From: Candidatus Bathyarchaeia archaeon
GTDB taxonomy: Archaea; Thermoproteota; Bathyarchaeia; 40CM-2-53-6
Assembly (NCBI GenBank): GCA_035656295.1
Contig: DASRSU010000008.1
Span: forward strand, 8,110 to 72,109
Reading direction: 5' to 3'
DNA length: 64,000 nucleotides
The translations under genes were made by a program, and so were the position numbers. The notes below the pieces were generated by a model. That model made no database searches. It was given only the letters and a program-made list of their open reading frames with translations, and was not told where the DNA came from. Of this stretch, positions 2,305-46,394 are shown piece after piece (position 1 is the stretch's first letter; the number at the start of each line of letters is the position of its first letter).

Positions 2305-2335
2305 AAAGGAGGTTTCTATCCATGTCGTCCCGTCA

Positions 2336-2803
2336 ATGGTCTTTGCCGCTTTGACAAAGCCCTCAAAGCTGAACACGTGGTTCACAACAGGGGCCAAGGT
2401 TGATCTTCGCGTTGGAGGCCGGTACTCTAACTTTGACAAGGATGCTGGTAGATTCCTCGAGATTGTTCCGAACAAACGACTCAGGTTCACATGGGACAAC
2501 CCTGATCATGCACCTGGTACCATCGTAGAGGTAGTTCTGACAAGAAACCGTGGGAGCACGATCGTCACACTACTACACTACGGGTTTAGCAAGAAGACAG
2601 ATTTCGAACATTACTCTTCACAAGCTTCTGGCTGGGACTGGGCACTATACAATCTAAAGGCCTATCTTGAAAAGAAGACCGTCGTCCAGTACGAAGAATG
2701 GCTCGAGAGGGAGAAATTGGTGTTTTCCAAGTCCGTTTTCGGATCCAACCCGCGGCTGCGAAAGGTCACCGCGAAGGACGAGGCAGAATCCCACGAGCTA
2801 TAG
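2336..2803 (+). CDS. SRPBCC / Aha1-domain (AHSA1-like) protein
   Basis: C-terminal 155 aa of ORF 1928..2803 (ALTKPSKLNTWF...VGGRY...RFTWDNPD...VTLLHYGF) matches the Aha1/SRPBCC fold pattern. Start at the in-frame ATG at 2336; the upstream 136 codons overlap the opposite-strand gene and look non-coding. AGGAGG at 2305-2310. Confidence 0.7.
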   Translation: MVFAALTKPSKLNTWFTTGAKVDLRVGGRYSNFDKDAGRFLEIVPNKRLRFTWDNPDHAPGTIVEVVLTRNRGSTIVTLLHYGFSKKTDFEHYSSQASGWDWALYNLKAYLEKKTVVQYEEWLEREKLVFSKSVFGSNPRLRKVTAKDEAESHEL

Positions 2804-3040
2804 CCACGTCATAGACACGTACGCATGGATAGAATATTTCCGAGCCTCGGGTGAGGGCGAGACGGCCCGAAAGTATATTGAGCAAGAAGTCTCATCAAGA
2901 ATAAGCCATAGCCAGCCGAAGTCCCGAAACTATCCAGAACTAGAGTGACCTACTCAGCACAGGCAGAAGGAATATATCGGCTTATGCTCCGAAACGCGTG
3001 GTGCAGAATGGTTGAAGCCGATTCGTTCGTGCTTGGCGAT

Positions 3041-3325
3041 TCACGCCAGTTCGGCGTCAGCCCGGTGTTCTTCTTCTTTCCAGTCCTTCAGCCTGCCACG
3101 AATCCTCTTCTGAAACCTTTCGAGCCTGAGGTCGGTGCTCAGTGAGAAGATTGGGTCGTTGGGATCTGCTTTCTCCGAGAGGAGGAGTAGTCGTGTGGCT
3201 ACTCTTAGTGCTTCTTTGAGGCTCAGCCCATGTTTCTCGGCGTAGCTCACTAACAGATTGTAGTCGGCCTTAGTAAGTTCCGTCTGGACAACTCTCACGG
3301 TATACGTTCCATGATCATGGACCAT
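3041..3325 (-). CDS. small hypothetical protein (possible ribbon-helix-helix-like)
   Basis: 94-aa ORF with a charged helical composition; no recognised family. Confidence 0.3.
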   Translation of the reverse strand: MVHDHGTYTVRVVQTELTKADYNLLVSYAEKHGLSLKEALRVATRLLLLSEKADPNDPIFSLSTDLRLERFQKRIRGRLKDWKEEEHRADAELA

Positions 3326-19357: not shown

Positions 19358-20359
19358 CTAGGGCTTTGAGGGTGGCGGCTGTAAAGGTTTCTGGTTATAG
19401 TCGAAACAATCCATCATGTCATCAGCGCCCCCATCCCGCTTATTCAACGCGGCCAATCCGAAAATAGACTCGCAGAAGCGTAGGAGGCTGACGTGTGAAT
19501 GCAGTTTTTTCGAGATATAACCAGGTCTAGCATAGGGCCCGATTACGAGACATCCGACACGCGACCCATACCTGAACTCAGTATTCTTGTACGATACCTG
19601 TGGAGCGGCAAGTGTCCACGTCTCCACGTTAGGCGGCTGGACATGATCGTACCAGCCACCCCAATCATCCCACGTAATGAAAATACTCGTCCTGGGCCAT
19701 AGTCCGCCCTTGACAATCGCATTTACCTGGTCCACGGTCCACTGCATCCCCTTCGTCACGTTCCCCATCACCCCAGACATCTTGCCATATGGTGGGTGCT
19801 CGTCGAACTCGCTCGGAGCATACACCCAGGACACGCTCGGCAGCTTTCCAGTGGAAGCATCCTTGGCAAACTGGTCCGAAGTAAACTTCCTCCTACTACT
19901 AACCCCGCTCAGATATTCAAAGGCGTAGCCTCCATAGTTTCCCCAGCTCAGTCGACTTCGCTCAAGAGACAGTGGAAGCGACGCGGATATTGACCGTGGC
20001 GGAGTACCCCCACGCGGCGGATTATCAATAAACGGCGAATCAGCAGCTATGAGCATTAGATGATTTGGTGTCGATGGGCCTGCTACCTCGGTAAAGTATT
20101 GGTCGCAGAGCGTAAACTTGCGCGCATACGCGAAGTATCCCGGAATGTTCGACTCGACAAACTGTTCCCTGACCGAGGTGGTCTCGCGGGTAAGCCATGC
20201 GCTGTGGCGATGGTCTGGGTCATGCAACGGCGGATTCTGCGAAACAGGCATTTTCAACCCGTTAGCGCCGGGAAAGGTTCCGAAGTAATTGTCGAAAGTA
20301 TGATTCTCCTTGACAATGATCACTACATGTTCCGGCTTACTGGAAACGACGTTGGACAA
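19358..20359 (-). CDS. phosphoesterase family protein (phospholipase C / AcpA acid phosphatase family)
   Basis: N-terminal family signature HVVIIVKENHTFDNYFGTF; W/D-rich C-terminal half (ITWDDWGGWYDH). Confidence 0.75.
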   Translation of the reverse strand: MSNVVSSKPEHVVIIVKENHTFDNYFGTFPGANGLKMPVSQNPPLHDPDHRHSAWLTRETTSVREQFVESNIPGYFAYARKFTLCDQYFTEVAGPSTPNHLMLIAADSPFIDNPPRGGTPPRSISASLPLSLERSRLSWGNYGGYAFEYLSGVSSRRKFTSDQFAKDASTGKLPSVSWVYAPSEFDEHPPYGKMSGVMGNVTKGMQWTVDQVNAIVKGGLWPRTSIFITWDDWGGWYDHVQPPNVETWTLAAPQVSYKNTEFRYGSRVGCLVIGPYARPGYISKKLHSHVSLLRFCESIFGLAALNKRDGGADDMMDCFDYNQKPLQPPPSKP

Positions 20360-20376
20360 GTCTATGATCCCTTAGA

Positions 20377-21003
20377 TCAGCGGTTACGGCGACGCTTGGC
20401 CTTCCTCGACTTCATAGAGTTATTGTCTCTCTGGAAAAACAGCCCGAACGCTAGTACAGCAAGAATCCCCGCGAATACGAGTGCGGCATTGTAGCTGAGC
20501 AGTATCTCTCCGATGGCAAAGTTTGCTCGGACCCAGGACTGCATGCTCAGGCTGGACGAATACTCCCCGACCAGTCCAGCATAGATGAGGACTAATAATC
20601 CGGCCTCGACCAGTCCGACCAGCATCGTCCGAGAAACCTTTCTCGTCGGAATATCCTCTGGAGTGAAGATTGCGTGGACACCTTTCATCGATCCAGTCCT
20701 CCCCCAGCTTCTAGCTTCGATCGTGTTCAAGCCAATCGAGTCATCTGACAAGTCATCTCCAGGCAATGAGACATCTGAGTTCTCGCCCCGGATCCAGGAT
20801 CGTACGACAGGTGTCCGTGACTTTCGTTTGAGCAGGGCCCAGCCTGTGCCTGCGAAGACGAGGGCGATTCCTATCGCGGTAAGCCAGAACGGAAGTGGAC
20901 TACTCGCGAATGCCACAGGATCCAGCCTAGCTGAGCCATTGAAAAGTCCATGCTTCGATCGTACACCCGGACGGACAAGAAGAGTAGCTTGCGCATATGT
21001 CAT
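20377..21003 (-). CDS. hypothetical membrane protein
   Basis: 208 aa with a TM near the N-terminus and two at the C-terminus, basic tail. Confidence 0.4.
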   Translation of the reverse strand: MTYAQATLLVRPGVRSKHGLFNGSARLDPVAFASSPLPFWLTAIGIALVFAGTGWALLKRKSRTPVVRSWIRGENSDVSLPGDDLSDDSIGLNTIEARSWGRTGSMKGVHAIFTPEDIPTRKVSRTMLVGLVEAGLLVLIYAGLVGEYSSSLSMQSWVRANFAIGEILLSYNAALVFAGILAVLAFGLFFQRDNNSMKSRKAKRRRNR

Positions 21004-21397
21004 ACGCTCCTGTCGCTAATGTGACAGCTTGGCCCGAAACGAGACCTGTGAAACCCGTACAGCTCGTGGCAGAATGTGGAACATAACCAACACTATTGAT
21101 GTCAGGGGGCAGGTTGAAAGTCGCAGTATCCGTACCACCAGTTGTAACAGTGAAGCCAGCAACCCTCGGCCCGCCACCACAGTCGTACCTCAGAGTTCCG
21201 GCGATCGGAGCACCGTTCAAAACCAGAGAGCCGCAGCATGGAACTGTTGTGCCGGCTGATGGCGCCGGGATGACAGTCTGCGGAATCTGTAATGATGTAA
21301 TCGCCTGAACAGACCCGATCAACAAGATCCCAGTCACAACAACGATCATCGGCTTACCATAACGCCGAGAAAGAAATCGTTCGAGAAAGCTCGCCAT
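20927..21397 (-). CDS. secreted Cys-rich hypothetical protein
   Basis: Signal-anchor (MIVVVTGILLIGSVQA) then Cys/Gly/Thr-rich domain; start set at Met9 (21397) of the listed ORF. Confidence 0.4.
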   Translation of the reverse strand: MASFLERFLSRRYGKPMIVVVTGILLIGSVQAITSLQIPQTVIPAPSAGTTVPCCGSLVLNGAPIAGTLRYDCGGGPRVAGFTVTTGGTDTATFNLPPDINSVGYVPHSATSCTGFTGLVSGQAVTLATGAYDICASYSSCPSGCTIEAWTFQWLS

Positions 21398-21478
21398 GTT
21401 TCGGTTGTGAAAACAGTACACGTCATAAGTCTATCTTGACCACAAGCCTCGCTGTTCAGAAATGCTAGCAACGATTCT

Positions 21479-21910
21479 GTGTCTCTCATGAGAGGCCCCT
21501 CATTATCGAGGGTGTCGATTAGGGACTTCACCCCAAGAACCTACGGAGGTAACGATATCGAGAAAAAGATAGTAATTCGGGACAAGCTTCGTTCGAAAAT
21601 AGGCGACCTAGACTCTCTGAGGAATGTCTGCCGAGGGAAGTCCATTTCACTTGAAGTCTGTTTTTATCTATATGGAAAGTCTTTGGTCGAAAGCAGAGCG
21701 AAAAAGGATTTGGACAACTTGCTCAAGATACTATTGGACACGCTGCCAGACTATATGGACCGCGCCAAAACCGTGAGAGGTCTGGGCCTAATTGAGGAGG
21801 ATAACGATTACTTGGTCTTCGAAATTCATGTGATCAAGAAATTTGTAACAAAAGAAGCTGATGCAGGGCTGGACTTGGAAATATTCGAGTGGCGAGCTGA
21901 AAACATGTGA
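21479..21910 (+). CDS. rusA: RusA-like Holliday junction resolvase
   Basis: SLEVCFYLYG...KKDLDNLLKILLDTLPDYMDR...GLIEEDNDYLVFEIHVIKK matches the RusA D..D..K..D(D) pattern. Confidence 0.6.
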   Translation: MSLMRGPSLSRVSIRDFTPRTYGGNDIEKKIVIRDKLRSKIGDLDSLRNVCRGKSISLEVCFYLYGKSLVESRAKKDLDNLLKILLDTLPDYMDRAKTVRGLGLIEEDNDYLVFEIHVIKKFVTKEADAGLDLEIFEWRAENM

Positions 21911-21955
21911 AAAATGGATATTTGTTATGAAGACGGATTTGAACAGTTCTGCTCT

Positions 21956-22489
21956 TCACCTGAGTAGGTCCCAGTTATTCCAACACTTGTCAATTGACTC
22001 GGTCGATACTCTTGCTCGTAGCAATGCCTCTCCCCCTCGCCCCGACCCACGATGCCTAAGTTGAAACTTCTTCCCTAAGGGAAAGCCGGCTTCAAATTTG
22101 ACCAGTCGTCCCTGACAAGTTCCGACGAATTGACTTTGGAATAGTTTCAGGAGTTCTTGGGCGCGAAATACCAGAAAGCCTGTTGGTGGGTGCCCTTCCG
22201 CCAGGACATAGAACATGTCGGGTTGAGTGCTGTCTTCTTTCAAGTGTCTTTGAGAAATGTTGTTGAACCAACTTCCACCAGTTGGATAGATTCTTGATGT
22301 CTTGACCTGAATCTTCCTTAACTTTTGTTCTTTAGTGAGAATAACCAAGTCAACGCCAGTATCAGCCGCAGGACTGTAGACGTTCCCTATCCAACTCTTT
22401 GAGAGCAATTGAGCCATGACGGCATACTCTCCCATTCGCCCCAGCTGTTGGGATCTGCCTCTCCCGCTTACAGTGTCTTCCTCACTCAT
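21956..22489 (-). CDS. PD-(D/E)xK nuclease-superfamily protein (Hjc/restriction-endonuclease-like fold)
   Basis: GRMGEYAVMAQLLSKSWIGNVYSPAADTGVDLVIL...KIQVKTS fits the G..E...x..D-x(n)-D..-(E/Q)xK core. Confidence 0.45.
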   Translation of the reverse strand: MSEEDTVSGRGRSQQLGRMGEYAVMAQLLSKSWIGNVYSPAADTGVDLVILTKEQKLRKIQVKTSRIYPTGGSWFNNISQRHLKEDSTQPDMFYVLAEGHPPTGFLVFRAQELLKLFQSQFVGTCQGRLVKFEAGFPLGKKFQLRHRGSGRGGEALLRARVSTESIDKCWNNWDLLR

Positions 22490-22524
22490 GACAAGGATGA
22501 TGTGGACAAATCTTTATTCTGTTT

Positions 22525-22845
22525 GTGGTACTGCAAGTTCCCATGGAACGAAGAAAGACCGTGAGAAGCAAGTATTGGCACGCTCCTTCAAAGGAGACTC
22601 AAAAATTGGTGGAAGCAGAACGGCGAGAAGGTCTTACACCGTTAGACCCGGAGATTTGTTCGGCAATTCGGAAGTTCGTGCGTAAGGAATTCGGATTCGC
22701 ACGCTTCACAATGCACTATGTAGATGATGGAGGGACAAGAAATTACACCTCATATGTGGTACGTGCCTTGTCCAACAAAGTCAATGCATCGAAGCACTTT
22801 GACCTTCAAATGCAATTCATGTTGAACAGTAAGGGCGTTGACTAG
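22525..22845 (+). CDS. hypothetical protein
   Basis: 106-aa basic ORF; no family recognised. Confidence 0.3.
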   Translation: MVLQVPMERRKTVRSKYWHAPSKETQKLVEAERREGLTPLDPEICSAIRKFVRKEFGFARFTMHYVDDGGTRNYTSYVVRALSNKVNASKHFDLQMQFMLNSKGVD

Positions 22846-23043
22846 GGGTAGGATTCTAACCCGGGCCTAGTAACGCCGCTTTCTAGGAATCAAAGCATCT
22901 GTAGGTGCATTCCTTCGTCCACTTTCCAGAGCAGTCAAGAACTAGTTTGTCTTGCGAATTAAGTTCGCTGTATTCAAACTGACCGCCACACCTATCGCAA
23001 GCGAACTCCACAAGAACCAACATTGGGACGCTGAGCTTCAGAC

Positions 23044-23907
23044 TTATGGTTTCGCTTGAACTGCGCTTCTCTTCAGGACGCTCCAAAGAGTAGCCAGGTT
23101 ATGCTCCCAAGCATCTTTGCCGCCCGTTTCGATGCTTACAACGATCTTCAGAAATTCTTCTACTTCAAGCGGGACAACCCTGTAGTCATTGTCCCTGCCC
23201 ACCGTGACGAGGATCGTCTGTGTTTTTGCCTCAATCTTTGGGGCTATGAAAACGCCTGATACAGATTTGTCTCGATAAGTCTTCCTGGCATCTTCAATAT
23301 GATCAGGAACAGACGCAGCCTCCTGATTCCATTGTGCTCTTCCTCTTAGAAGGGTAGTCTCCACAACATACACGTTGTTGCCCTGAAAAGCCATTATGTC
23401 GGGCAGTTTCTTTCCAGTCTGTTCCGAAATCTTTTGGGCAGGAGTTGGAAGACCCCACTCTCCGGTCTTGCCGTTCCAAACAACATCATCAAACACGGTT
23501 CCTTTGAATACACGTAAGACCCGAAAGACTAATTCTTCCAGCCTTCCTCCAGCAACCCACCGTAGAGTTTTGGGGTCACTTTTCTCGGTCCCATTTTTCC
23601 ATTCCAACCTAGTCTGAAGGTCTGAATCTGCTTTCTTGGTCACAAGTTCCCGAATCCAGAGTGACAATAATTCGACTGTATCTACCTGGGCGGGCAGGCC
23701 CTCTTCTAGGGATATGGAGAACGTTCTATGCTTCGAGTCAGGTCTTATCATCGCTTTGGATATGGCCTGCCCGTCAGCTGGGCGGATTACTTCAATCTCG
23801 TATTCGCTATTCTCATACAGGCTGAAAATGGCGGAACCATCCTCGTTAGCAAATTGAACCGATTCAGGCTGTTGACCGGACTTCTTTGACTTTGACGACA
23901 AATCCAC
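23044..23907 (-). CDS. restriction endonuclease, C-terminal part (putative catalytic domain), GTG-initiated ORF continuing 23864..24751 in another frame
   Basis: 287 aa. The ORF opens right after an in-frame TAA (~23933). The combined length with the upstream ORF (~580 aa) matches AlwI-family enzymes, so a single gene split by a frameshift is likely. Confidence 0.4.
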   Translation of the reverse strand: MDLSSKSKKSGQQPESVQFANEDGSAIFSLYENSEYEIEVIRPADGQAISKAMIRPDSKHRTFSISLEEGLPAQVDTVELLSLWIRELVTKKADSDLQTRLEWKNGTEKSDPKTLRWVAGGRLEELVFRVLRVFKGTVFDDVVWNGKTGEWGLPTPAQKISEQTGKKLPDIMAFQGNNVYVVETTLLRGRAQWNQEAASVPDHIEDARKTYRDKSVSGVFIAPKIEAKTQTILVTVGRDNDYRVVPLEVEEFLKIVVSIETGGKDAWEHNLATLWSVLKRSAVQAKP

Positions 23908-24751
23908 TGGCTGTGCCCGAGGCGGGCTGGAGTTTTATTTCTACCTTCTGAGGTGGGTGATCACGTGATGTATCTCCGAAATATTCGAACCACTCTTCTT
24001 CATCTCTCCAATCGGTTTTGACATCAATCCGCTCGGAAAGGAGTGACTTTACCTCAGGTTCTTTGCCCGGTGTGATGCTAAGCTGTTGCGTCTTTGGGTC
24101 GAACGTGCATAACCCAGTGGCGAGAATGTAGGGTCTAAGATGTTCTTCGTACTCGTGAATACGAGTATATAGCAGGCCGGTAGACTGTTCCTCTTGGTTT
24201 CTGGCGTCCAGCTTGCGGAAGTCCAATATTGCGTTCCTAACCGTGTCCAGTTCACTCTGTTCCGCTGACATGGTTCGCCAAACGAACAGCGCGGATTCTC
24301 TTTCATGAAGTGACCCAAGCTCGGTCAGAAAATAGAGAATAGTTCTGAAAGGAAATAGCTTGATAGATCGGGTGTAAGGAGCCACGTGGCCCTGTGCCTC
24401 ATATGGATTAGGGTATTGCCACTTCAGGAGCTGAAGCCGTAAGACCTCTTCGACTTTTCCATTGACGAAGAGAGCACCCGCAGGCGTAATAGTAAGAAGT
24501 TCTTCTCGCACCCATGCGAGTCCAAAGTACTCAAATGTTGCGAGTATCGCTCTGGAGGAGCGCTCATCAGAGATTTTGGACACAACGAGTTTCTTCTTCT
24601 GAAGGAGTGTCTTGTAGTAGATTTGCTTCGGCCTCCAAGGCTTACCAGCAAAATCTCTCCCTGCGAGAATACTCAGGGCCAGTCGGGTTTTTTCAACATT
24701 AGTCCACCGCTTGTTCGCGTGCCAGTGCGGATAGTCAGGTCTCTTGGGCAC
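23864..24751 (-). CDS. restriction endonuclease, N-terminal part (AlwI/N.BstNBI-family-like)
   Basis: Immediately downstream of and co-directional with the methyltransferase. N-terminal region (...WRPKQIYYKTLL...SRAILATFEYFGLAWVREELLTITPAGALFVNG) resembles the N-terminal region of AlwI-family type IIS enzymes (similarity recalled from memory, not run). It overlaps the next ORF by 44 nt in another frame. Confidence 0.4.
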   Translation of the reverse strand: MPKRPDYPHWHANKRWTNVEKTRLALSILAGRDFAGKPWRPKQIYYKTLLQKKKLVVSKISDERSSRAILATFEYFGLAWVREELLTITPAGALFVNGKVEEVLRLQLLKWQYPNPYEAQGHVAPYTRSIKLFPFRTILYFLTELGSLHERESALFVWRTMSAEQSELDTVRNAILDFRKLDARNQEEQSTGLLYTRIHEYEEHLRPYILATGLCTFDPKTQQLSITPGKEPEVKSLLSERIDVKTDWRDEEEWFEYFGDTSRDHPPQKVEIKLQPASGTASGFVVKVKEVRSTA

Positions 24752-24780
24752 AGAGCGAGCTTGGAGATAGAGTGTTTAAG

Positions 24781-26145
24781 TCACTTTCTGAAAGTCATGA
24801 CCCATTCAGCGGACATCTTCTCAGATGGACGCATATCATGCGGCCGCATCATAAGGACAGACCCGAAGCTGTCAACTCGCGCAAAACCTAGTTCTTCGGC
24901 TATCTGTCCTATGACTGTGTGCGTGGGGACCGGAATTTTCCTAATCAAGTTGTCAGCAATAGCGTAGCAGAAATGCCCCTCATCCACCAAGACTCGCTTG
25001 ATCTCCAACATTGTCTCCCGCATGTCTCGGAAGAATTGATAAACGACGTACGCTCTCTTTTTGTCGATACTCCATAGTTCCTTGAGGATCGAGTCTAGAA
25101 GTTCGTTTCCATATTTCGGCATCTTGGAGTAAAGAGTTGCAGGAGCCTGTTCATTGCCGATATATGCGCGTTTGAGCTCTCCTAGAGGCCCTTTCCAGAA
25201 ACCAAACCAATACAACTGGAGTTGGTGGGCCCGAGGATAATCAACCGCATTCAGATACGGCGGAGATGTCATAACGAGATTTACTGTGCGGTCTGCCAAT
25301 TGAATCATTCTTGCATCTTCGCCGATGATTTGCGCAAGACTTTCCTTGCTGCAGGCCTTAGAGAATGCTATCATCTTAGGAACCAAGACATTGGTCCGTT
25401 CAATGAAGATCTTCTTGGCGTCGATAGCTCTTTTCGTCTTGGCCCTCATATGCCGGCTTATAGCAAGAGCATAGAGGAACTTAGGGTCAGCATTTGAAAC
25501 CTCTTTCAGAATCGAAGATAGAACGACGAGAAAGAATTCACGAACATCTCTATCCTCAATACGCAGAATAGCGGCGTAGATTATCCCTAGATCCTCTAGA
25601 ACATCGCCTCTGAACCAGTAATCTCGGTTAGGAAAGGAGGGGATTTCAGACTGATTGCTTTTGACAATCTCGTTGAACAGTTTGTTCTGTTGACTTCTTA
25701 GCTTGATCTCGTCAAGGGGAGTCGTTTTGACTTTGGCAAGCAGTCTTGCAAGAGGATCTACATCGATCGCGTAAGAATTCCTTGCCCATAGCTTAGCTTC
25801 TACGTTTGTGGTACCACTTCCACAAAAAGGATCAAGAACAACATTTCCTCTTGTCGTGAATTTGTGAATAGCCCATCGGGGAATTTCTGGTATGTACTTA
25901 GCAGGATACTTGTGAAAACCATGGGTGTAGTTTGACCTGTCGAGACTCACAATTGAAAGCAGTTTTCCCTCGAATACTCTCTCGGTCGATATGTCGCCCT
26001 CAATTGTCCCGGTGAGTGTTTGAGCAAACTTACGCCTCTGCTCTTTATCGTCGAATACATACTGGAGTAACCCTCCCCCTGTGGGTTCGTTGTTCTCAGA
26101 CATGAGTCTGGGCCCTAGCGTTTCAAATGGTTTTGTTAGAGCCAT
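24781..26145 (-). CDS. DNA methyltransferase, N6-adenine/N4-cytosine class (N6_N4_Mtase family)
   Basis: HKYPAKYIPEIPRWAIHKFTTRGNVVLDPFCGSGTT (AdoMet motif) and NLVMTSPPYLNAVDY (catalytic S/D-PPY). Confidence 0.85.
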   Translation of the reverse strand: MALTKPFETLGPRLMSENNEPTGGGLLQYVFDDKEQRRKFAQTLTGTIEGDISTERVFEGKLLSIVSLDRSNYTHGFHKYPAKYIPEIPRWAIHKFTTRGNVVLDPFCGSGTTNVEAKLWARNSYAIDVDPLARLLAKVKTTPLDEIKLRSQQNKLFNEIVKSNQSEIPSFPNRDYWFRGDVLEDLGIIYAAILRIEDRDVREFFLVVLSSILKEVSNADPKFLYALAISRHMRAKTKRAIDAKKIFIERTNVLVPKMIAFSKACSKESLAQIIGEDARMIQLADRTVNLVMTSPPYLNAVDYPRAHQLQLYWFGFWKGPLGELKRAYIGNEQAPATLYSKMPKYGNELLDSILKELWSIDKKRAYVVYQFFRDMRETMLEIKRVLVDEGHFCYAIADNLIRKIPVPTHTVIGQIAEELGFARVDSFGSVLMMRPHDMRPSEKMSAEWVMTFRK

Positions 26146-26297
26146 AAAAAGGGACGGTTTACCGAGTCCGCGAGGACTACCATGATTACGCCGTGGAAGT
26201 GAAAACGGTTCTCGTCGCTGGAGAAACTCTCATGGAGATAGGATTCTATCGAAAGTACAGACTCATCCAAACCCGACATCGTATACAAACCAGACAT

Positions 26298-28508
26298 CTA
26301 GCTCGGATAATCCACGATCGTAGCAACGTTCGTAGGATCCGGCTTCTCCAAGCCAATGTTGTACTCGTCACGTCGTTTCTGTGTCTTGCTGGTCGGCATG
26401 TCCAGGAGCATATTCGACAGTGAGACAGGCGTCAATGCCTGGTAATTCGTCAGATCATCCGTCAAGTCCAATTCCGTAACAAATCCTTCACCGGTTCCGA
26501 ATCGGTGTCGGGCCTCCAGTATTCGAAGCGTAGCTACTGTCAGGTTCGCGCTCGGGGCTGTGACTGTGACTTTCTGTCCAGGCAGGACGTCAGGGATTCC
26601 AGGAACGGTTATTGTTCCCCTTAGCACAGCCCTTTGGCTACGGAAGAGTTCTGCCTTTGCCAGGAGTTGGAGCTCGCTGGGCTCACGGATCTTGTGGTTC
26701 ACCAGGTGTGACTCGCGTAATCCGTAGGATGCTATCTTGGTCGAGTTCTTTGCTATGTAGTGGGTTTGTCCATCAATTCTGAATCCGTCAATCCAGACCT
26801 GGCCGGAAGTTTTCGCTTCTACGAACTGGAAGCCGAACTCTATCACGTTGATGTTGTTCCAATTGGGACTGCCAGTCTTGACAAACTGGTCACCATAGGG
26901 CCCTAAGTTATACTCCCACAAATGCCATTCAGTATTCGTGACTGCGTTTTTCGGATTGCTCGGGCCTGCTCCCGCAACCCCCAACGGTAGCGGCTCGCTC
27001 AAGAACCCATCCGTAGCGTATGTTGTCCAACATTTGATCTGGGGAGCATACATTTTCGCAACTGTGCCCGAAGGGTTAGTGTCACATTTCAGATAGATCT
27101 TCAGACGTGGTGGTACGATTCTTCCACCGAGTTTTGTAACGTCTAGCCCGCCGACCGCCGTAAAGCGAATATCGGCCTCGAGACTGCCCGTTGTCGCTCC
27201 AGTCCAAGAAGCAGTTACTGACTGGGCTCCCACCCGGAAGTTTCCCGCACCGACGTCGTACAAGGGGCCCGTCCTCGTGCCTCCAGTAGCTCCAGAGGAA
27301 AAGGCCCAGTTTCCGATCGGGGTAGTCTCAGTCCACGCATCACCGTCCGGAGGCTTGACCGTGATCGACCAGAAATGCACCTGGTTCACGAGATGTTGAA
27401 TGTCGCTGGTGAGAGCATTTGAGATCTGGTCGCGGCCCACGTTGAGCGCGTTCGGATAAGTTGAAGGGTTGGGATCCGTGCCCCAAGCACCGAGGGCTGC
27501 CAAGTGACAATTTTCAGCATTATCAACCCAGAACTCCACTGGTTGAGTACTTGTCCCGCTTGGATCGTTGTTGCTGGTGAGAAGATCACAAAGCTGCTTG
27601 ATGCAGTTGAAGGCAGGTTCTGTCTTGAAAATGATGTAGGTCAAGGCATTGTTTGCGAATGATTGGATGTAGTTTGTAGTCAGTTGGTAGCCTCCAGCAT
27701 TGACGACTGTGATGATATCGCTGACCGCTCCGGTCATGGTGTTGATGCTATTGTTGATCGACTGGCTTCCGTATTCTTTCAACGAGTAGGCGTTCAATAA
27801 TGCCTGGGCCCAGCCTTGACAATGAAGCTTGATCACGTCTCCCCGAGCCGATAGGTCCGGAGACAGTTCCGTGATTGTGCCACCGAAGACTTTGTTCAGA
27901 CTTTTTGTCTGCGTATCATCCTGGATGTATCCATTGTAGACGTAGAGAATGTCGTTGAGATGAAGAGGGGTAGTTACAAGATAGCGGCCGCCCGTGTTGC
28001 GAAGAGCGAAGCTGACGTCGTTCACAGTGTTCGTTGAACAGTTTGCGACTATTGGGTCGACGTCCTGCTTGGTTAGGACGACTGGTGTGAGATTGCAGAT
28101 GGCAACATAGTCGACATTGTTCGTGCCTGCAACGGACTGGTTTCCAAATTTCACCGAGCTGGTAGTCCTGCCGCTTGTCAGAGTGAACATGAAAACCTGG
28201 TAGCTGCTTGTGAGGGCCATAACGAAAGTATCGGTGCTAGCGCCTTCGACCACGGAGCAGGTGAGATTTCCAGATCCCTTTGCCCGGACCACGACGTAGG
28301 GTGACGTCGTGGTGCTGATTGCAGGCAGTGTCTTGTTGAAACCGTTGGCCCCAGTCGTCCCGCTTAGACTGAGAATGTCGCCGTCCGTCGTTGCAGTGAC
28401 GCCTGCATCTGCGGACCAGGCAATGTTGAAATTGTCATCACGGAAAACGCCATAATTGAAGCGCAGAATATCGATCTCTAGTATGGGACGGAGATAGGGC
28501 TGAGGCAT
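26298..28508 (-). CDS. tail fibre / receptor-binding protein (736 aa)
   Basis: Large beta-rich Gly/Thr/Asn-rich protein at the distal end of the morphogenetic block; its N-terminal module is paralogous to that of 28761..29591. Confidence 0.45.
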   Translation of the reverse strand: MPQPYLRPILEIDILRFNYGVFRDDNFNIAWSADAGVTATTDGDILSLSGTTGANGFNKTLPAISTTTSPYVVVRAKGSGNLTCSVVEGASTDTFVMALTSSYQVFMFTLTSGRTTSSVKFGNQSVAGTNNVDYVAICNLTPVVLTKQDVDPIVANCSTNTVNDVSFALRNTGGRYLVTTPLHLNDILYVYNGYIQDDTQTKSLNKVFGGTITELSPDLSARGDVIKLHCQGWAQALLNAYSLKEYGSQSINNSINTMTGAVSDIITVVNAGGYQLTTNYIQSFANNALTYIIFKTEPAFNCIKQLCDLLTSNNDPSGTSTQPVEFWVDNAENCHLAALGAWGTDPNPSTYPNALNVGRDQISNALTSDIQHLVNQVHFWSITVKPPDGDAWTETTPIGNWAFSSGATGGTRTGPLYDVGAGNFRVGAQSVTASWTGATTGSLEADIRFTAVGGLDVTKLGGRIVPPRLKIYLKCDTNPSGTVAKMYAPQIKCWTTYATDGFLSEPLPLGVAGAGPSNPKNAVTNTEWHLWEYNLGPYGDQFVKTGSPNWNNINVIEFGFQFVEAKTSGQVWIDGFRIDGQTHYIAKNSTKIASYGLRESHLVNHKIREPSELQLLAKAELFRSQRAVLRGTITVPGIPDVLPGQKVTVTAPSANLTVATLRILEARHRFGTGEGFVTELDLTDDLTNYQALTPVSLSNMLLDMPTSKTQKRRDEYNIGLEKPDPTNVATIVDYPS

Positions 28509-28760
28509 TTTCGATCAACGTTTATTTTGATGCGAGAATCACGACAGCATAATGACAGACAGGAAAACATGGGAAGGAAAGGCGACTCGACGGAACGAGG
28601 CGAATGACCACTACTTTGAATGGGGGGGTGCTGGAGCGTGGTGAAGAAGACGTAGATTTGCTGCAGATGTTTAGAGAACTGTTCGGAGATCGTTCATGGC
28701 GTGGAGATCCTTGGGCGGGTAGGAAAGTGCGTGTGACTCTTGAGGAGATCCCCTAATGAA

Positions 28761-29591
28761 CTACTGTATTGCTCCAGTTCCTGTGTTTGACTGGAAGCTT
28801 TGCGTACCAGCATTGATGACGTCGACCTTCACCAGCCGCATCTTGTAACCATAGTAACCGACCTTTCCAGGGTCCTGCGTCGGCATCAACTGTTCAATCT
28901 GATATTTCCCAGCTATGCGATCAGAACCGAGCCATTGCCAGTTAGCCTCCAACCAGGTCCCGACTAGCACGTCCCACCACTGGTTGCCACTGTAATTGTT
29001 GGGAGTAGTAGTCGTGATCAGAGTGCCTGCTAGCTCAACCATGGCACTTTGGGAGCCTAGGTCCTGGGTGACTTCTCCTTCACGGGTTGGGATCGGTAGT
29101 TTAACAAGCCACCTTTGCAGTGTCATGTTCATCGGCTGGCTCGCAGCGGGCAAGACCAGGTATTCTTTGAGGAAGAAGATGAAGTCGATCTTGATGCTGG
29201 AGGCGCCGTTCTGGATAAACTTCATCGAGCTCAGCGTCTTGCCAGCTGTTAGGCCTGTACCATCATTCGGCGAGAAAACGTACGTCTTGTAGGTCGCCGT
29301 GTTGATAGTGATTCCGTAGGTCTGGTTTGTAGCGTCCGCGAAAGTGATTGTTACCTGCGCATTCGTACCATCGACGCCGAGAATTTTGATGGCCCAACCC
29401 TTGTACGTGTTGGTAGAGAGAGATCCGGCAATGTTGCTGGATGCCCCGTTAGAGGCGGTCATGCCGCTGATTGTTAGAATGTCCCCGTCGCTACTGACGC
29501 TTACGCCAGCATCCGTAGTCCAGTTGTTCGCGTTGAGCATGTCATCCCGGTAGCCTACTCCTCGAGTAAGTGATACATCCCCAGCAGCCAT
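28761..29591 (-). CDS. tail fibre-like protein (276 aa) sharing its N-terminal module with 26298..28508
   Basis: YRDDMLNANNWTTDAGVSVSSDGDILTISGMTASNGASSNI aligns with FRDDNFNIAWSADAGVTATTDGDILSLSGTTGANGFNKTL. Confidence 0.45.
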   Translation of the reverse strand: MAAGDVSLTRGVGYRDDMLNANNWTTDAGVSVSSDGDILTISGMTASNGASSNIAGSLSTNTYKGWAIKILGVDGTNAQVTITFADATNQTYGITINTATYKTYVFSPNDGTGLTAGKTLSSMKFIQNGASSIKIDFIFFLKEYLVLPAASQPMNMTLQRWLVKLPIPTREGEVTQDLGSQSAMVELAGTLITTTTPNNYSGNQWWDVLVGTWLEANWQWLGSDRIAGKYQIEQLMPTQDPGKVGYYGYKMRLVKVDVINAGTQSFQSNTGTGAIQ

Positions 29592-29593
29592 GT

Positions 29594-30235
29594 CTATCTC
29601 CTGAGACGTTCACGATCGATGAGGATCTCGAGATGCCTCTTGACTGCAGCAGCCGTCTGTTCGGGGTTGCCGGATCCCTGGATTGTGATGTTGGCCGTCA
29701 CGTTGCTTCCACTACTGATCGGGCTCATGTTGTAGGTTCGGACGTCCATGCCTCCTTGTCCTGGACTAGTAGATGGCCCGGAAGGAGTCGTGGTAGTCCC
29801 TCCGCTTCCCCCGGGATTCTTTGAAATGTACTGTGAGAGTCCCCAGGCTGTGAGAGCTGCTACCGCTCCAGCCAAGAGTGCCCATCCTAGTGGACCGGCA
29901 AGAGCATCAGCAACCGCAGTGGCAGCGTTCATAATGTTCTGTGCGGAAGCTGCCGCGAGAATTGCAGGAACAAGTCTTGCCAAGACATTGATCATTGTCC
30001 CAGCAGCTGCAATGAAACCGAAGACTCGATCGAGAGACTGTGCCGTCTTCTTGTCCAGGAGGCCGAACTGTTCGGCTAGATTCGTGACGAAGAGGCCTGT
30101 TCCACCGAGAACTGCGATCGCTCCTCCTAAGGCGCGTACTTTCGACTGGATAGTGTCAGTTACTTGGCTGACATGGTCGATGCCGCGGAAGATGATGCGT
30201 AGATCGTGTACTGCACCGATAGCGCCGAGACTCAT
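29594..30235 (-). CDS. tail-associated Ala/Gly-rich hydrophobic protein (short tape-measure-like?)
   Basis: 213 aa with Ala-rich helices and a Gly/Ser/Thr/Pro linker; position between tail fibres and tail assembly genes. Confidence 0.3.
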   Translation of the reverse strand: MSLGAIGAVHDLRIIFRGIDHVSQVTDTIQSKVRALGGAIAVLGGTGLFVTNLAEQFGLLDKKTAQSLDRVFGFIAAAGTMINVLARLVPAILAAASAQNIMNAATAVADALAGPLGWALLAGAVAALTAWGLSQYISKNPGGSGGTTTTPSGPSTSPGQGGMDVRTYNMSPISSGSNVTANITIQGSGNPEQTAAAVKRHLEILIDRERLRR

Positions 30236-32242: not shown

Positions 32243-33121
32243 TCACGTAATTGTCACGGTCTTCGCCGTGAAGGCATACTTCTCGTAGACGACCTCTGTC
32301 GGGTCAAACTTCCACGACTCGAGTCGTGTAATGTAGCAGCCTGACAATGTCAACGTCGAGGTCGCGCTCTTGAGGACCCAGCTAATCGTATTGGACGTGG
32401 CGTTGGTGAGATTAGTGTACTGGCCGGTGTCTTCCCAGATGATCGTGAATGTGCCGTTGATACGGCGCTGTTTTGGGGGCATGAACTTTTGCTGTGACTG
32501 GCCGAGAACGTGCAGCTTCTCCACGTTCCGTTCGAAGGTTACCTGAATCTCCCGGACGTCAGGATTAGCGGCACCGATCGTGACCGGGTTGACGCCTCCA
32601 TCGTAGAAGGACCAGGGTGTCACGGCCGGATCCGTTGCATAACTGCCTGAGCCGATTGGAGTACTAGTTGACGGGACAGGAATCGATTTTGCGGTAAGCG
32701 TGCACTTGACCTTAGTCAGGTCCCCGTATCTCGAGGAAATTGTCAGGCTGCCTACTCTACTGCCGAGCAGCTGGACAAAGTTTTCGGTTCCAGACATTTT
32801 CGCGGAGAAGAGTATGCTGAGACTCTTGTCAATCGTGCCAGTACCTCCACCTTGACTACTGATGGCGTATTTTGCGAAGGTAGAGCTCGCCATGGCGTAT
32901 TCCATTTCCATCGAATAGGTCTCTGCGCCTTTGAGAATGTAGACGAGATCTTCAACGCCAAGCTGTGGTACGAGAATGTTCTGCATGTCAGCCTTGACGT
33001 CAGCATTGCCTATTGGTGCGATCCAGGACATTGCCGGATTCGTTGGAAAGACGCCATAGCTGGCTTCTTCGGCATACTGGAGGTTCTTGACAACTAGCCA
33101 GCCTCCGCTGGGACTTGACAT
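32243..33121 (-). CDS. putative major tail / tail tube protein
   Basis: 292-aa beta-rich protein upstream of the gp10-like and tail-fibre genes; positional inference only. Confidence 0.3.
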   Translation of the reverse strand: MSSPSGGWLVVKNLQYAEEASYGVFPTNPAMSWIAPIGNADVKADMQNILVPQLGVEDLVYILKGAETYSMEMEYAMASSTFAKYAISSQGGGTGTIDKSLSILFSAKMSGTENFVQLLGSRVGSLTISSRYGDLTKVKCTLTAKSIPVPSTSTPIGSGSYATDPAVTPWSFYDGGVNPVTIGAANPDVREIQVTFERNVEKLHVLGQSQQKFMPPKQRRINGTFTIIWEDTGQYTNLTNATSNTISWVLKSATSTLTLSGCYITRLESWKFDPTEVVYEKYAFTAKTVTIT

Positions 33122-33125
33122 TTTG

Positions 33126-33965
33126 TTACACTCTGTTGAAGATTAGGATTTGACGGAAGGCATGGCGCTTCTGGCCCATCTTGACCTTGACCGAGTTGTG
33201 GCTTGTTCTGAATGGCAGGAGCGAGAAGCGCTTGTAGAATTCGCGGATCTCTGGCGTATCATCATAGGTCATGATGAACTTGCCATGGATCCCGGCCAGC
33301 AGCTGTGCTAGATCCTTGTGGTCTTGTTCTATGAACGAGTAGTAGCCCTTGCTGACAGTTGAAAGATATGGCGGGTCTAGGAAGAATAGTGTTCCAGCAC
33401 TATCCCAGTTTCTGATGCACTTTCGAAAGTCGAGGTGGTCGATGTTGACGGATCTAAGCCGTTGGCTGAGATAGGCGACACGGCCTGCGATGTTCGTCCA
33501 GCTTGCAGAGCCGCCATGGGCCCCAGAACGATCAAAACGCCATCCTTTAGTGGGATCACCGACAAAAGCGCTGGAGATCGTGTAGGCGGTTCGTACTGCA
33601 GCTTCGACACGGTCAAGGCCAACTGTTTCGATGTCCTCTTCCAGCTGATCTCTCCACTCATAGTACAATTGCCTGCTGTAGTGGAGCCAGCGACATTTCT
33701 CGAGGAACTGAACCGGACTGTTCCTGACCGTCTCGAAAAAGTTGACAAGCCATCCGTTCCGGTCATTGTAAACTTCAATCTCGCTCGGCGGTTTTGCTAG
33801 GAGAACGCTGGCGGCGCCGCCGAATACTTCAACATAGATTTTGTGGGAGGGGAGTAGTCCCGCTATCTTCGGGGCCAAGCGGTATTTCCCGCCTCGCCAG
33901 GGAAACGCTGCGATTCTCTTGCACGCGCTGCTTCCAGTAGCGATGACAGTATCTAGCAAGATCAA
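33126..33965 (-). CDS. dam: Dam-type (D12 class) N6-adenine DNA methyltransferase
   Basis: FPWRGGKYRLAPKI, EVFGGAASV (AdoMet site), FFLDPPYLSTVSKGYY (DPPY). Confidence 0.8.
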   Translation of the reverse strand: MILLDTVIATGSSACKRIAAFPWRGGKYRLAPKIAGLLPSHKIYVEVFGGAASVLLAKPPSEIEVYNDRNGWLVNFFETVRNSPVQFLEKCRWLHYSRQLYYEWRDQLEEDIETVGLDRVEAAVRTAYTISSAFVGDPTKGWRFDRSGAHGGSASWTNIAGRVAYLSQRLRSVNIDHLDFRKCIRNWDSAGTLFFLDPPYLSTVSKGYYSFIEQDHKDLAQLLAGIHGKFIMTYDDTPEIREFYKRFSLLPFRTSHNSVKVKMGQKRHAFRQILIFNRV

Positions 33966-42806: not shown

Positions 42807-43496
42807 TCATGGAACTCCCATGTAGATCGCCAGAATGCTTCCGGCGCCAGTGTACACGGTGCATCTTGGTCTGAAGTACCTGAATGGTCGTGCGATTGCA
42901 TCTACCGAAAACTTGTAGGTACCGGAACCATCCGTGTTCGTATGAGTAAGTATCGTCGACCAGTTAGCGTTGTCAAAGGAGCCTTCTAAAATGACGGTCC
43001 ATGTTGTAGCGCCACTGTTGATTACTACAAACCCATAATATTTTGGGTTCCACCCAAAAGCGGTGAAGTCAAGGCTGACCCCCGTTCCAGTAGCAGTAAA
43101 TGTGTTTTGTTGTGGCGTAGCAAAGCCCGGTGGAAATTGTATTCCGGGAGTAACGCTGAGGATGTTTGTCGAAACAGTATTGAAAACTTGGACTGGTAGA
43201 TCCATCAACGCGGGCGTAAGCGCATCTGGAACTCCGGCGATGCCGCCAACCGTTGTACCATCGAGATAACTTGTCGCTTTTGCTAGCGTCGGCCAGTTCT
43301 GTGCCCCCGAATTGCCTTGGTTCGCAGTAACGGTGCCGGAGGAGATGGTCGTGCTAACAAGGGATACTGTCTGCGTACCACCGGGAATATTGCGGACGAC
43401 TAGAGCCTGCTCGTTACCAACGATCGCTGTCCCTTTGACCGCGGCGAGATTCGCGCTTGTCGTAGGGTCGCCGATTACAACAACATCCATCTCCAC
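42807..43496 (-). CDS. hypothetical virion protein (beta-rich, 229 aa)
   Basis: Gly/Thr/Asn-rich ORF between the portal and protease genes. Confidence 0.3.
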   Translation of the reverse strand: MEMDVVVIGDPTTSANLAAVKGTAIVGNEQALVVRNIPGGTQTVSLVSTTISSGTVTANQGNSGAQNWPTLAKATSYLDGTTVGGIAGVPDALTPALMDLPVQVFNTVSTNILSVTPGIQFPPGFATPQQNTFTATGTGVSLDFTAFGWNPKYYGFVVINSGATTWTVILEGSFDNANWSTILTHTNTDGSGTYKFSVDAIARPFRYFRPRCTVYTGAGSILAIYMGVP

Positions 43497-45930: not shown

Positions 45931-46394
45931 TTGGTAGATGTAACAGTGCTCACCTCCGACGTGATCGTGAAGTCTTGGTCTGAACCCGAGAAATCCTGGC
46001 TCGCCTGTGCTATCGACAGCGAAGGATCTATCAATTTCCGTCCTGACAAGAGGCACAAGGAAACAATGAGTTTCTCCGTTTGGTTCTGCAATACCAATCG
46101 GCCATTCGCGCACACGTTCGCCAAACTGACTGGAGGGACGCTCTTTTCGCGCGGCCACCGCGCGGTTTCGGCAAGAAGATGCAATTCGAGGTCTATGTGA
46201 CCTCCAAGGCGCGGGTTGGGAAGCTGCTAGAAGCAGTGCTTCCGTATCTGATTGTAAAACAACAACGCGCTCGCGAACTGCTAGCCTGGATCCGTCAGCA
46301 TCCAGAGACTAGAGCCGACAGAATCGTCAGGTTGAACCGGACGCTTCCTCGAAACGAGGCCGGTTCAAACATGCCTCTAGCATCGTCCTACTGA
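45931..46394 (+). pseudogene. LAGLIDADG-family homing endonuclease (single-motif type), frameshifted near 46105-46135
   Basis: KSWLACAIDSEGSINFRPDKRHKETMSFSVWFCNTNRPFAHTFAKLTGG (LAGLIDADG-like motif WLACAIDSEGS). The C-terminal half continues in the +1 frame (FGKKMQFEVYVTSKARVGKLLEAVLPYLIVKQQRARELLAWIRQHP). The break lies at a cttttcgcgcggccaccgcgcgg run. Sits on the opposite strand between the portal and TerL genes. Confidence 0.6.

Follow-up and report, generated by a model that had tools for sequence, protein, structure and literature searches.

The question raised by this locus is whether a methyltransferase gene and the two overlapping reading frames behind it still form a working restriction–modification (RM) system, or whether the nuclease has been lost and the methyltransferase left alone. 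The window (the whole stretch of DNA analysed, 64,000 nucleotides of a Candidatus Bathyarchaeia archaeon) was taken from a metagenome-assembled genome. On its minus strand the methyltransferase (MTase) gene comes first, and behind it lie two ORFs, one of 295 aa and one of 287 aa, in different frames; the genes are co-oriented, and the gap between MTase and endonuclease (REase) is 29 nt. In the NCBI annotation the two ORFs are separate proteins, each named "AlwI family type II restriction endonuclease". The following features were located, and all positions and properties given for the three frames in an earlier note on this DNA match the sequence:

24781..26145, minus strand: DNA methyltransferase gene of the N6/N4 family, 454 aa (Pfam PF01555, 7e-17)

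25807..25833, minus strand: MTase motif I (AdoMet binding), DPFCGSGTT, residues 105–113

25255..25266, minus strand: MTase motif IV (catalytic), SPPY, residues 294–297

23864..24751, minus strand: ORF-N, 295 aa, N-terminal half of an AlwI-family endonuclease gene

23044..23907, minus strand: ORF-C, 287 aa as listed, C-terminal endonuclease half; the frame is open from 23934 (23044..23934)

23864..23907, minus strand: overlap of ORF-N and ORF-C, 44 nt, ORF-C being in the +1 frame relative to ORF-N

The cassette is a type II (type IIS-like) RM system of two genes and belongs to an uncharacterised, apparently mainly archaeal AlwI/N.BstNBI branch. The nuclease gene has probably been inactivated by a small insertion, and the MTase has been left as a solitary enzyme.

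The MTase was named in the earlier note as intact on the strength of its DPFCGSGTT and SPPY motifs; both are present and invariant in alignment A2, and the protein is full length and the conserved partner of this REase type. Motif I precedes motif IV (alpha-type), and one copy of each is found in ~440 aa. PADLOC MTase_II was matched at 7.5e-57 over positions 63–423, nearly the full length; identity to the MTases preceding intact REase relatives was 55–60%, all invariant blocks being retained (alignment A2). Since these relatives measure 437–444 aa, the true start is probably Met15 (nt 26103), giving 440 aa. The SPPY motif, together with PDB matches to m4C enzymes (PvuII, N4CMT) that were weak, suggests m4C as the modified base. 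No second MTase gene was found in the four related loci examined. A search of the window for the recognition site through motif avoidance gave no strongly depleted 4–6-mer; GGATC and GAGTC occurred at expectation.

Both nuclease ORFs exceeded the gathering score (23.1 bits) of Pfam RE_AlwI (PF09491): ORF-N – 27.1 bits, profile 13–186; ORF-C – 42.4 bits, profile 347–441, 5.9e-11; intact relatives P0004 and P0017 reach 58–61 bits, and profile positions ~186–347 have no match in the window protein. PADLOC REase_II PDLC03422 was matched by ORF-C at positions 344–552 (8.9e-20), the two halves matching complementary parts of one REBASE-derived REase model. ORF-N was aligned to N.BspD6I residues 12–189 which, with the Pfam profile, agrees with the likeness to AlwI-type N-terminal regions noticed earlier; the ORF-N/ORF-C alignment set comprised 16 full-length relatives. 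By alignment and predicted model, ORF-N contains the winged-helix recognition region and the first two strands of a middle beta domain, and ends with 7 out-of-frame residues followed by TGA; ORF-C contains beta-domain strands 3–7, a three-helix linker and the PD-(D/E)XK cleavage domain, in which the catalytic residues are found:

23317..23403, minus strand: catalytic motif PD...E-T-T...E (D451, E464, E477, numbering of the repaired protein), intact

These residues align with D456/E469/E482 of N.BspD6I in columns that are invariant across a 27-sequence alignment.

When the two ORFs were joined, the 568-aa protein matched 26 single-chain relatives (564–609 aa) over 93–100% of its length (identity 34–48% to 25 of them and 25% to one; E-values down to 1e-169, well outside anything expected by chance), so that the AlwI/N.BstNBI-type size proposed for the joined ORFs holds. 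Recognition and cleavage parts in a single polypeptide were present in 26/26 full-length relatives and absent in the window; no split copy occurred among the 26. In all four intact-relative loci examined, which are independent of one another, a 437–444-aa MTase lies directly upstream of the single-chain REase, with a gap of 0–4 nt. Pfam, the relatives and the partner MTase thus bear out the earlier reading, in which the AlwI-family REase of an RM module has been broken by a frameshift while its MTase is intact; as the relatives are single-chain, the two ORFs are not independent subunits. The relative loci examined carry archaeal genes, and the hosts of this branch appear to be mainly archaeal. 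A near-identical intact copy was sought and not found in GTDB genomes (23–35% identity), JGI metagenomes (≤39%) and the protein database (≤48%), so that no close relative displays the gene as it stood before the break.

The repaired protein was modelled with AlphaFold2 (mean pLDDT 84.9). The model contains a middle domain for which no significant Pfam family was found:

23707..23950, minus strand: seven-strand beta-sandwich domain, repaired residues 268–348 (AlphaFold2 prediction)

Foldseek of the model gave the following: beta-sandwich – resemblance to transthyretin and CBM41; whole model – N.BspD6I, 4e-20; N-terminal region – BpuJI recognition domain, TMt 0.55–0.58; cleavage domain – R.BspD6I small subunit, TMt 0.69; overall model – FokI, E 1e-6. 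The N-terminal region is thus predicted to have a winged-helix recognition fold like that of N.BspD6I, FokI and BpuJI. The frameshift cuts the predicted beta-sandwich after strand 2 and not at a domain border; as the break lies inside the seven-strand domain, the two pieces are predicted not to be folding units.

This position of the cut bears on the proposal of a functional two-subunit enzyme, like BstNBI/BspD6I or BtsI/BsrDI, built from the 295-aa recognition fragment plus a cleavage fragment of ~280 aa that is translated on its own. Heterodimeric type IIS enzymes do occur in the family (PMC3017599), the N fragment is predicted to hold a complete BpuJI-like recognition region, and the NCBI listing of the halves as separate AlwI-family proteins is of the same tenor; but the organisation is found in no relative, the cut falls within the beta-sandwich and not between domains, and BspD6I has in its small subunit an additional catalytic domain rather than one half of the large subunit (PMC3017599). 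Translation of the second frame is a further difficulty: no ATG is found in the +1 frame before residue 53, the GTG/TTG candidates have no distinguishing context (in a window where Shine–Dalgarno motifs seldom mark gene starts), and the GTG "start" listed for ORF-C is a mere artefact of ORF listing. A small-subunit gene is not conserved nearby, no conserved small ORF adjoining the intact relatives being found in the four loci examined. A 177-aa PD-(D/E)XK_5-like ORF (21956-22489) was considered as a BspD6I-type partner and rejected; it is unrelated, showing no similarity to the cleavage domain, to 2P14 or to any solved chain. Assembly from two subunits is accordingly regarded as extremely unlikely.

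The frame change was confined to a short stretch by comparison with the relatives:

23866..23887, minus strand: interval holding the frame change, 22 nt, aaagaagtccggtcaacagcct; 15 nt in 25/25 full-length relatives

The break amounts to a net gain of 7 nt in a spacing that is invariant in the 25 full-length relatives. It falls past codon 288, in the loop of a beta-hairpin, between the conserved VVKV (frame 0) and ESVQF (frame +1). Homopolymers in the interval do not exceed 3 nt (longest run AAA), and a Logan short-read contig, assembled independently with a different assembler but possibly derived from the run that also yielded the metagenome-assembled genome, was 100% identical over 9,826 bp spanning the site. 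The earlier note did not decide between a true shift and a sequencing error; since the Logan assembly is identical and no homopolymer exceeds 3 nt, a real frameshift, not an assembler artefact, is favoured. If the shift arose in sequencing or consensus building, or belonged to a minority allele, the nuclease gene of the organism would be intact and single-chain and its RM system would work; the metagenomic source of the DNA and the lack of further damage in both halves are compatible with this. Against it stand the exact agreement of two different assemblers over 9.8 kb, the lack of any homopolymer above 3 nt, the net +7 nt against an invariant family spacing, unlike a typical single-base miscall, and the large host genes of the window, which are unbroken (e.g., 1142-aa PolD DP2, 546-aa thermosome); an artefact is thus judged improbable. 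Phase variation was rejected: the shift interval contains no simple-sequence repeat, and the GTCAAA-GTCAAA hexamer pair is in frame.

The cassette adjoins the last tail gene of a tailed-virus-like gene block, the hallmark genes of which are co-oriented:

26298-28508 and 42807-43496: tail proteins, provirus hallmark

32243-33121: tail tube gene, provirus hallmark

33126-33965: Dam-like MTase of the provirus

46388-47864: TerL halves (large terminase), provirus hallmark

The provirus measures ~29 kb and is tailed (Caudoviricetes-like), its gene block having 80+ relatives in IMG/VR; host genes lie at ≤20359 and ≥50086. The window contains no tRNA, no integrase was found among the ORFs scanned, and no attachment-site repeat was longer than a chance-level 12-mer. 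The provirus-edge position claimed for the cassette was confirmed, in that it abuts the last tail gene; the cassette is an accessory at the provirus end, inside or just beyond the border. Related viruses lack it; cassettes of this type otherwise sit on chromosomes, and IMG/VR viral contigs yielded a single distant relative (31% identity).

The large terminase of the provirus also has a +1 break (context GAC TGA G; REase, GCC TGA A), and no canonical start was found upstream of the catalytic Asp in its nuclease half in the window. The break is kept in the closest relatives L055/L056 (GAC UAG G) at 57% identity, with a frame overlap of just 11 nt; as it is kept at this distance, some +1 breaks in this virus–host system are evidently tolerated or decoded. 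The terminase break was also considered as proof of provirus decay, which was rejected since the same arrangement is kept in the closest relatives.

The terminase bears on a further explanation, according to which ribosomes slip into the +1 frame around the frame-0 stop (…ACA GCC UGA A…), skipping the U as in prfB or antizyme, and so make a full-length endonuclease in amounts kept low relative to the MTase. The two halves are open and conserved, as in a functional gene, the catalytic triad is intact, and the terminase break has a similar context (GAC UGA G) and persists in L055/L056. On the other side, 0/26 REase relatives are split; the P-site codon GCC cannot re-pair on CCU; no slippery run and no upstream Shine–Dalgarno-like sequence were found at the break site, Shine–Dalgarno motifs being rare at gene starts across the window; and the RNA fold at the site is no more stable than that of shuffled sequences (z −0.55), i.e., no stimulatory structure was seen. 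Moreover, frame +1 gives KKSG after VKV, which is nearer to the family turn (xxNG) than the frame-0 KEVR, and this suggests that the frame changes upstream of the stop. C-UGA-purine is a common gene ending, and its occurrence at both breaks was spotted post hoc. We know of no established +1 programmed frameshift in archaea. Recoding of the REase is therefore considered quite unlikely. A narrower form is held to be very improbable: the REase break would share with the two-frame terminase of this virus clade an unexplained way of decoding that keeps the terminase functional (stop-associated recoding at …C UGA purine…, throttling a toxic nuclease).

Inactivation of the nuclease gene, the preferred explanation, would proceed as follows. 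In intact relatives the ~440-aa single-domain MTase would modify the target site; the ~570-aa single chain would bind the site via its N-terminal winged-helix region, and its C-terminal FokI/BspD6I-like PD-(D/E)XK domain would cut near the bound site, probably after transient dimerisation via the cleavage domain, by analogy with AlwI and MlyI. In the window the net +7 nt after codon 288 shifts the frame, and translation would stop after 295 residues; the product would be a DNA-binding fragment without nuclease, and for the downstream 280 codons there is no credible separate start. The nuclease gene would then be a recent pseudogene, and the solitary MTase may still methylate host and provirus DNA and, as put forward earlier, protect the provirus. 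The age of the lesion can be gauged from the family-invariant columns, of which 81.5% are conserved in the window REase (82% and 62% in divergent intact members). Apart from the break both halves are fully open and free of further damage; given the intact catalytic D/E/E and MTase and a conservation like that of the divergent intact members, the lesion is probably young. In the relative L054 the REase is interrupted by a nonsense mutation (CAA>TAA) beside an intact 441-aa MTase; loss of R with retention of M is thus a recurring outcome in this REase subfamily.

The case would be one of ordinary RM decay, in which the nuclease goes first and the methylase survives, and the public annotation of the two fragments as separate enzymes is corrected. 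The analysis also delineates an uncharacterised AlwI/N.BstNBI branch with an extra beta-sandwich spacer domain, as predicted, and a single-domain SPPY methylase; its intact members (e.g., P0004, P0005, P0017) could be a source of type IIS or nicking enzymes with new specificities. If a provirus end carries a solitary methylase, the methylome of host and virus would bear its mark, which is of relevance to methylation motifs in Bathyarchaeia metagenomes.

Among known systems, the class I type IIS enzymes AlwI, MlyI and PleI share Pfam PF09491 (above the gathering score) with the window family. Its intact relatives are likewise single chains, of ~570 aa, with N-terminal recognition, one C-terminal PD-(D/E)XK site and an adjacent cognate MTase, the small-subunit gene being absent. 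AlwI and MlyI bind as monomers and cut both strands as a transient dimer (PMC3017599); because the intact relatives share the single chain, the single site, the adjacent MTase and the lack of a small subunit, this mode would be the default expectation for them. Compared with AlwI, the window family is remote and is predicted to carry a transthyretin-like beta sandwich of ~80 residues between the recognition and linker regions. The AlwI-family REases of mollicutes and relatives are reported to be partnered by a fused double adenine MTase (PMC12898733); the partner in the window differs from that of characterised AlwI-type systems in being a single-domain ~440-aa SPPY MTase, not a double one.

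In sequence (E 4e-12) as in fold, the best solved relative is N.BstNBI/N.BspD6I (large subunit of R.BspD6I; PDB 2EWF, 5LIQ), at an identity of about 16%. For double-strand cuts BspD6I depends on a small catalytic subunit with a gene of its own (2P14), whereas none is conserved beside the window subfamily, and the split in the window divides one chain and adds no second catalytic subunit. The resemblance to FokI and the BpuJI recognition domain lies in the modular type IIS layout and is at fold level only, with no detectable sequence similarity. As in +1 frameshifting of prfB and antizyme, frame 0 ends in UGA, the continuation is in +1 and skipping of the U would join the halves; unlike in those genes, neither a slippery P-site codon nor a stimulatory element is present in the window, and the shift is not conserved among relatives.

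As with solitary MTases left behind when the cognate nuclease is lost, the window has an intact MTase beside a probably disabled nuclease gene. Stand-alone MTases are carried by the Bathyarchaeia tailed viruses Fuxivirus and Kunpengvirus (PMC10848311), and the window cassette likewise lies on or at a tailed provirus in Bathyarchaeia. It differs from solitary MTases in that its nuclease remains fully recognisable and its MTase is of a type that is paired on chromosomes with an intact nuclease.

RM cassette: three ORFs of the minus strand were found arranged head to tail (window positions):

24781..26145 (−), N6/N4 DNA methyltransferase ORF, 454 aa (Pfam, PADLOC)
23864..24751 (−), N-terminal nuclease ORF, 295 aa (RE_AlwI profile positions 13–186)
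23044..23907 (−), C-terminal nuclease ORF, 287 aa (RE_AlwI profile positions 347–441)

The 287-aa ORF lies in the +1 frame relative to the 295-aa ORF and overlaps it by 44 nt. Profile searches assigned the methyltransferase to Pfam PF01555 (7e-17) and PADLOC MTase_II (7.5e-57); motif I, DPFCGSGTT: residues 105–113; motif IV, SPPY: residues 294–297. Both nuclease ORFs exceed the Pfam RE_AlwI gathering score, match complementary parts of PDLC03422 (REBASE-derived model, 591 positions) and are labelled 'AlwI family type II restriction endonuclease' in GenBank (HZY93786.1 and HZY93785.1), where they are placed on a 1.05-Mb contig of a Candidatus Bathyarchaeia MAG. The ORF layout, overlap and methyltransferase motifs described in an earlier note were borne out in all details by the ORF listing, Pfam and PADLOC, and its placing of the split endonuclease in the AlwI family is supported by the scores and complementarity of both halves.

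The frame-repaired protein (568/569 aa, the two nuclease ORFs joined; residue numbers refer to it) was used for protein search, and 26 single-chain relatives (P0001–P0026) of 564–609 aa were obtained at 93–100% coverage; identity: 34–48% in 25 of them (E-values down to 1e-169), 25% in one. No half-length homologue besides those of the window was returned; two independent proteins are therefore very unlikely, and the single split gene proposed in the note agrees with all 26 relatives. At the four loci examined, which are independent, ordinary archaeal chromosomal settings (neighbours Cdc6, aIF-2, XPF, POR), the single-chain nuclease gene follows an N6/N4 methyltransferase of 437–444 aa in every case, at a distance of 0–4 nt, so the M-then-R cassette is a conserved unit from which only the window copy departs. 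The window methyltransferase is 55–60% identical to these four, is of full length and retains every invariant block; its start is likely Met15, giving 440 aa.

In the family alignment the conserved G-x-[YV]-V-K-V strand is encoded in frame 0 and E-S-x-x-x-x-x-x-D-G…FSLYEN in frame +1, which confines the change of frame to 22 nt, 23887–23866. This interval is exactly 15 nt in 25/25 full-length relatives, among which the surrounding 28-residue segment is invariant in length; the window gene has thus a net gain of 7 nt. The repaired protein was modelled with AlphaFold2 from the family alignment (mean pLDDT 84.9, pTM 0.72), and the following parts were predicted:

residues 1–260, winged-helix, helical recognition region
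residues 268–348 (window 23707–23950), seven-strand β sandwich
residues 359–413, three-helix linker
residues 420–565, α/β nuclease domain

Foldseek returned, in this order, N.BspD6I (4e-20), the R.BspD6I small subunit (TMt 0.69), FokI and the BpuJI recognition domain (TMt ~0.58); the predicted sandwich is of transthyretin- and CBM41-like fold, with no Pfam family assigned to it. Catalytic D451/E464/E477 align with D456/E469/E482 of N.BspD6I and are invariant across the family alignment. The frame break falls directly after β-strand 2 of the sandwich, i.e., according to the model, inside a folded domain rather than at a linker. A functional two-piece enzyme formed from both nuclease ORFs is argued against by this cut within a predicted domain, by the first ATG of the +1 frame, which does not occur before residue 53, and by the lack of any relative sharing the split arrangement.

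A Logan contig (independent short-read assembly of run SRR12347814) was 100% identical to window 20285–30110 without gaps and gave the same 295- and 287-aa products, the Logan and MAG assemblies possibly stemming from the same sequencing data. The longest homopolymer in the shift interval is AAA, and the long host genes of the window are unbroken; the split is thus unlikely to be due to the assembler or to a homopolymer error.

At nearly invariant family columns the repaired protein showed 81.5% agreement (most divergent intact members: 82% and 62%); neither decay beyond normal divergence nor a second lesion was found in the family alignment, which points to a recent event. We regard it as probable that the type IIS-like cassette carries a real, recent and most probably inactivating frameshift and that a solitary methyltransferase remains at the provirus end; the orphan methyltransferase suggested in the note accords with the full-length methyltransferase and the broken nuclease frame. 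Loss of the nuclease with retention of the methyltransferase is the expected decay route of a toxin-antitoxin-like RM pair, and such a state is ordinary for RM systems. It recurs in the subfamily: in L054 (Logan contig, SRR22388033), positions 1590–3236, an in-frame TAA (CAA>TAA) takes the place of the conserved LPxPAQKVSE Gln codon ahead of the catalytic motif and leaves nuclease pieces of 419 and 127 aa; the 441-aa methyltransferase upstream of this gene is intact.

Large terminase of the provirus: 46388–47864 (−), also two-frame, reproduced in the Logan assembly; the ATPase ORF, 47079–47864, ends with …TSSD and stop (GAC TGA G), the nuclease half is in the +1 frame, and no canonical start precedes the catalytic Asp. 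Among 75 evaluable relatives in IMG/VR, 68 were one-ORF and 7 two-frame (viral contigs L055, L056, L057/L045, L080, L097/L051, L130/L052, L132), the latter including the three closest relatives, all of 57% identity; every break falls in the linker that joins ATPase and nuclease, and at least 5 lineages are represented. The ATPase ORF of L055 and L056 ends with …ISGD and stop (GAC TAG G) and the frame overlap is only 11 nt; in L132 (TTT TGA A) the exact family spacing is regained if a single T is skipped. Since both halves stay open across divergence to 57% identity, the two-frame layout is regarded as conserved and, presumably, as functional; a +1 shift (recoding), coupled restart or a split enzyme could be the mechanism. 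The break was rejected as a sign of provirus decay, on which it says nothing, because it is kept in the closest relatives; it is a more interesting loose end than the nuclease split.

This terminase modestly raises the chance of +1 decoding in the system, and hence of a programmed shift yielding the full-length nuclease, but we hold such recoding to be very improbable: the split is unique among the nuclease relatives, a +1 slip on GCC UGA A would find nothing to re-pair with, the RNA around the site does not fold more stably than shuffled sequences (z −0.55), and, compared with the frame-0 peptide, the +1 peptide right after VKV (KKSG) is closer to the family hairpin turn (x-x-N-G). An inactivating frameshift remains the preferred reading.

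Provirus context: a virus-like block of ~29 kb lies between host genes:

up to 20359, left host genes: thermosome, phosphoesterase
from 50086, right host genes: GTP cyclohydrolase II, RibD_C, PolD DP2

Besides large terminase, tail tube and tail proteins, its co-oriented virus genes include a Dam-like D12 methyltransferase; head, tail and packaging hallmarks were identified in 21000–50000. Among the ORFs scanned no integrase was recognisable, and no flanking tRNA or att repeats were found. The cassette (G+C 45–50%, slightly below 50–56% of the block) adjoins the last tail gene (26298–28508) at the left end of the block and is separated from the left host genes by three small ORFs (21479–22845), in support of the provirus-edge location claimed before. 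It was absent from 9/9 related viral contigs, in three of which the tail gene is only ~1–1.5 kb from the terminase, and a single, distant (31%) methyltransferase relative was found in viral contigs among 2.9 million scanned; the cassette is therefore taken as a cellular-type accessory at the provirus end. Gene order in relatives shows where the block is linearised: the point lies between its distal tail gene and the terminase region.

Small ORFs: 177 aa, weak PD-(D/E)XK_5 match (9e-5, below the Pfam cut-off) and phrog_5018 match (3e-7); 143 aa, faint RusA and Csm3-like matches only; 106 aa, no match. Their viral or host origin would decide whether the cassette is inside or outside the provirus. 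Two (−) ORFs at the left border, 20377–21003 and 20927–21421 (208 and 164 aa, predicted membrane/secreted proteins), overlap by 77 nt in +1 relation; they may represent a third case of gene breakage or a true overlap of two genes. The Dam-like D12 methyltransferase, 33126–33965 (−), lies between tail-module genes (Pfam 1e-20, phrog_56 7e-64); with homologues of 41–43% in viral contigs L045 and L052 it is, unlike the RM cassette, core virus cargo. Logan contigs end at ~20285, ~30086–30110 and ~50238; the outer breaks, inside the phosphoesterase and GTP cyclohydrolase II genes, are near the block ends, and branches of the assembly graph at these places might stem from a population in which only some variants carry the element. 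No att-like repeat was found (best common 12-mer, 20281/48249, at chance level).

Comparison with known systems: the block resembles the described tailed Bathyarchaeia viruses of ~32 kb, which encode stand-alone methyltransferases (PMC10848311). The nuclease belongs to the AlwI/MlyI/PleI/N.BstNBI family (PF09491), its branch having ~16% identity to N.BspD6I. As no small-subunit gene is present beside the intact relatives examined, the natural expectation is that they would work in the AlwI/MlyI mode, monomer binding and then transient dimerisation of cleavage domains, rather than as the heterodimeric BspD6I (PMC3017599). Motif-avoidance analysis gave no recognition-site signal. From characterised AlwI-family members the branch differs in the inserted, predicted β sandwich of ~80 residues between recognition region and helical linker and in its hosts, which for the close relatives appear to be archaeal. 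A further difference is the conserved partner, a single-domain SPPY methyltransferase, in contrast to the fused double adenine methyltransferase reported for AlwI-family systems in mollicutes and relatives (PMC12898733). New type IIS or nicking specificities might be obtained from intact members of this branch.
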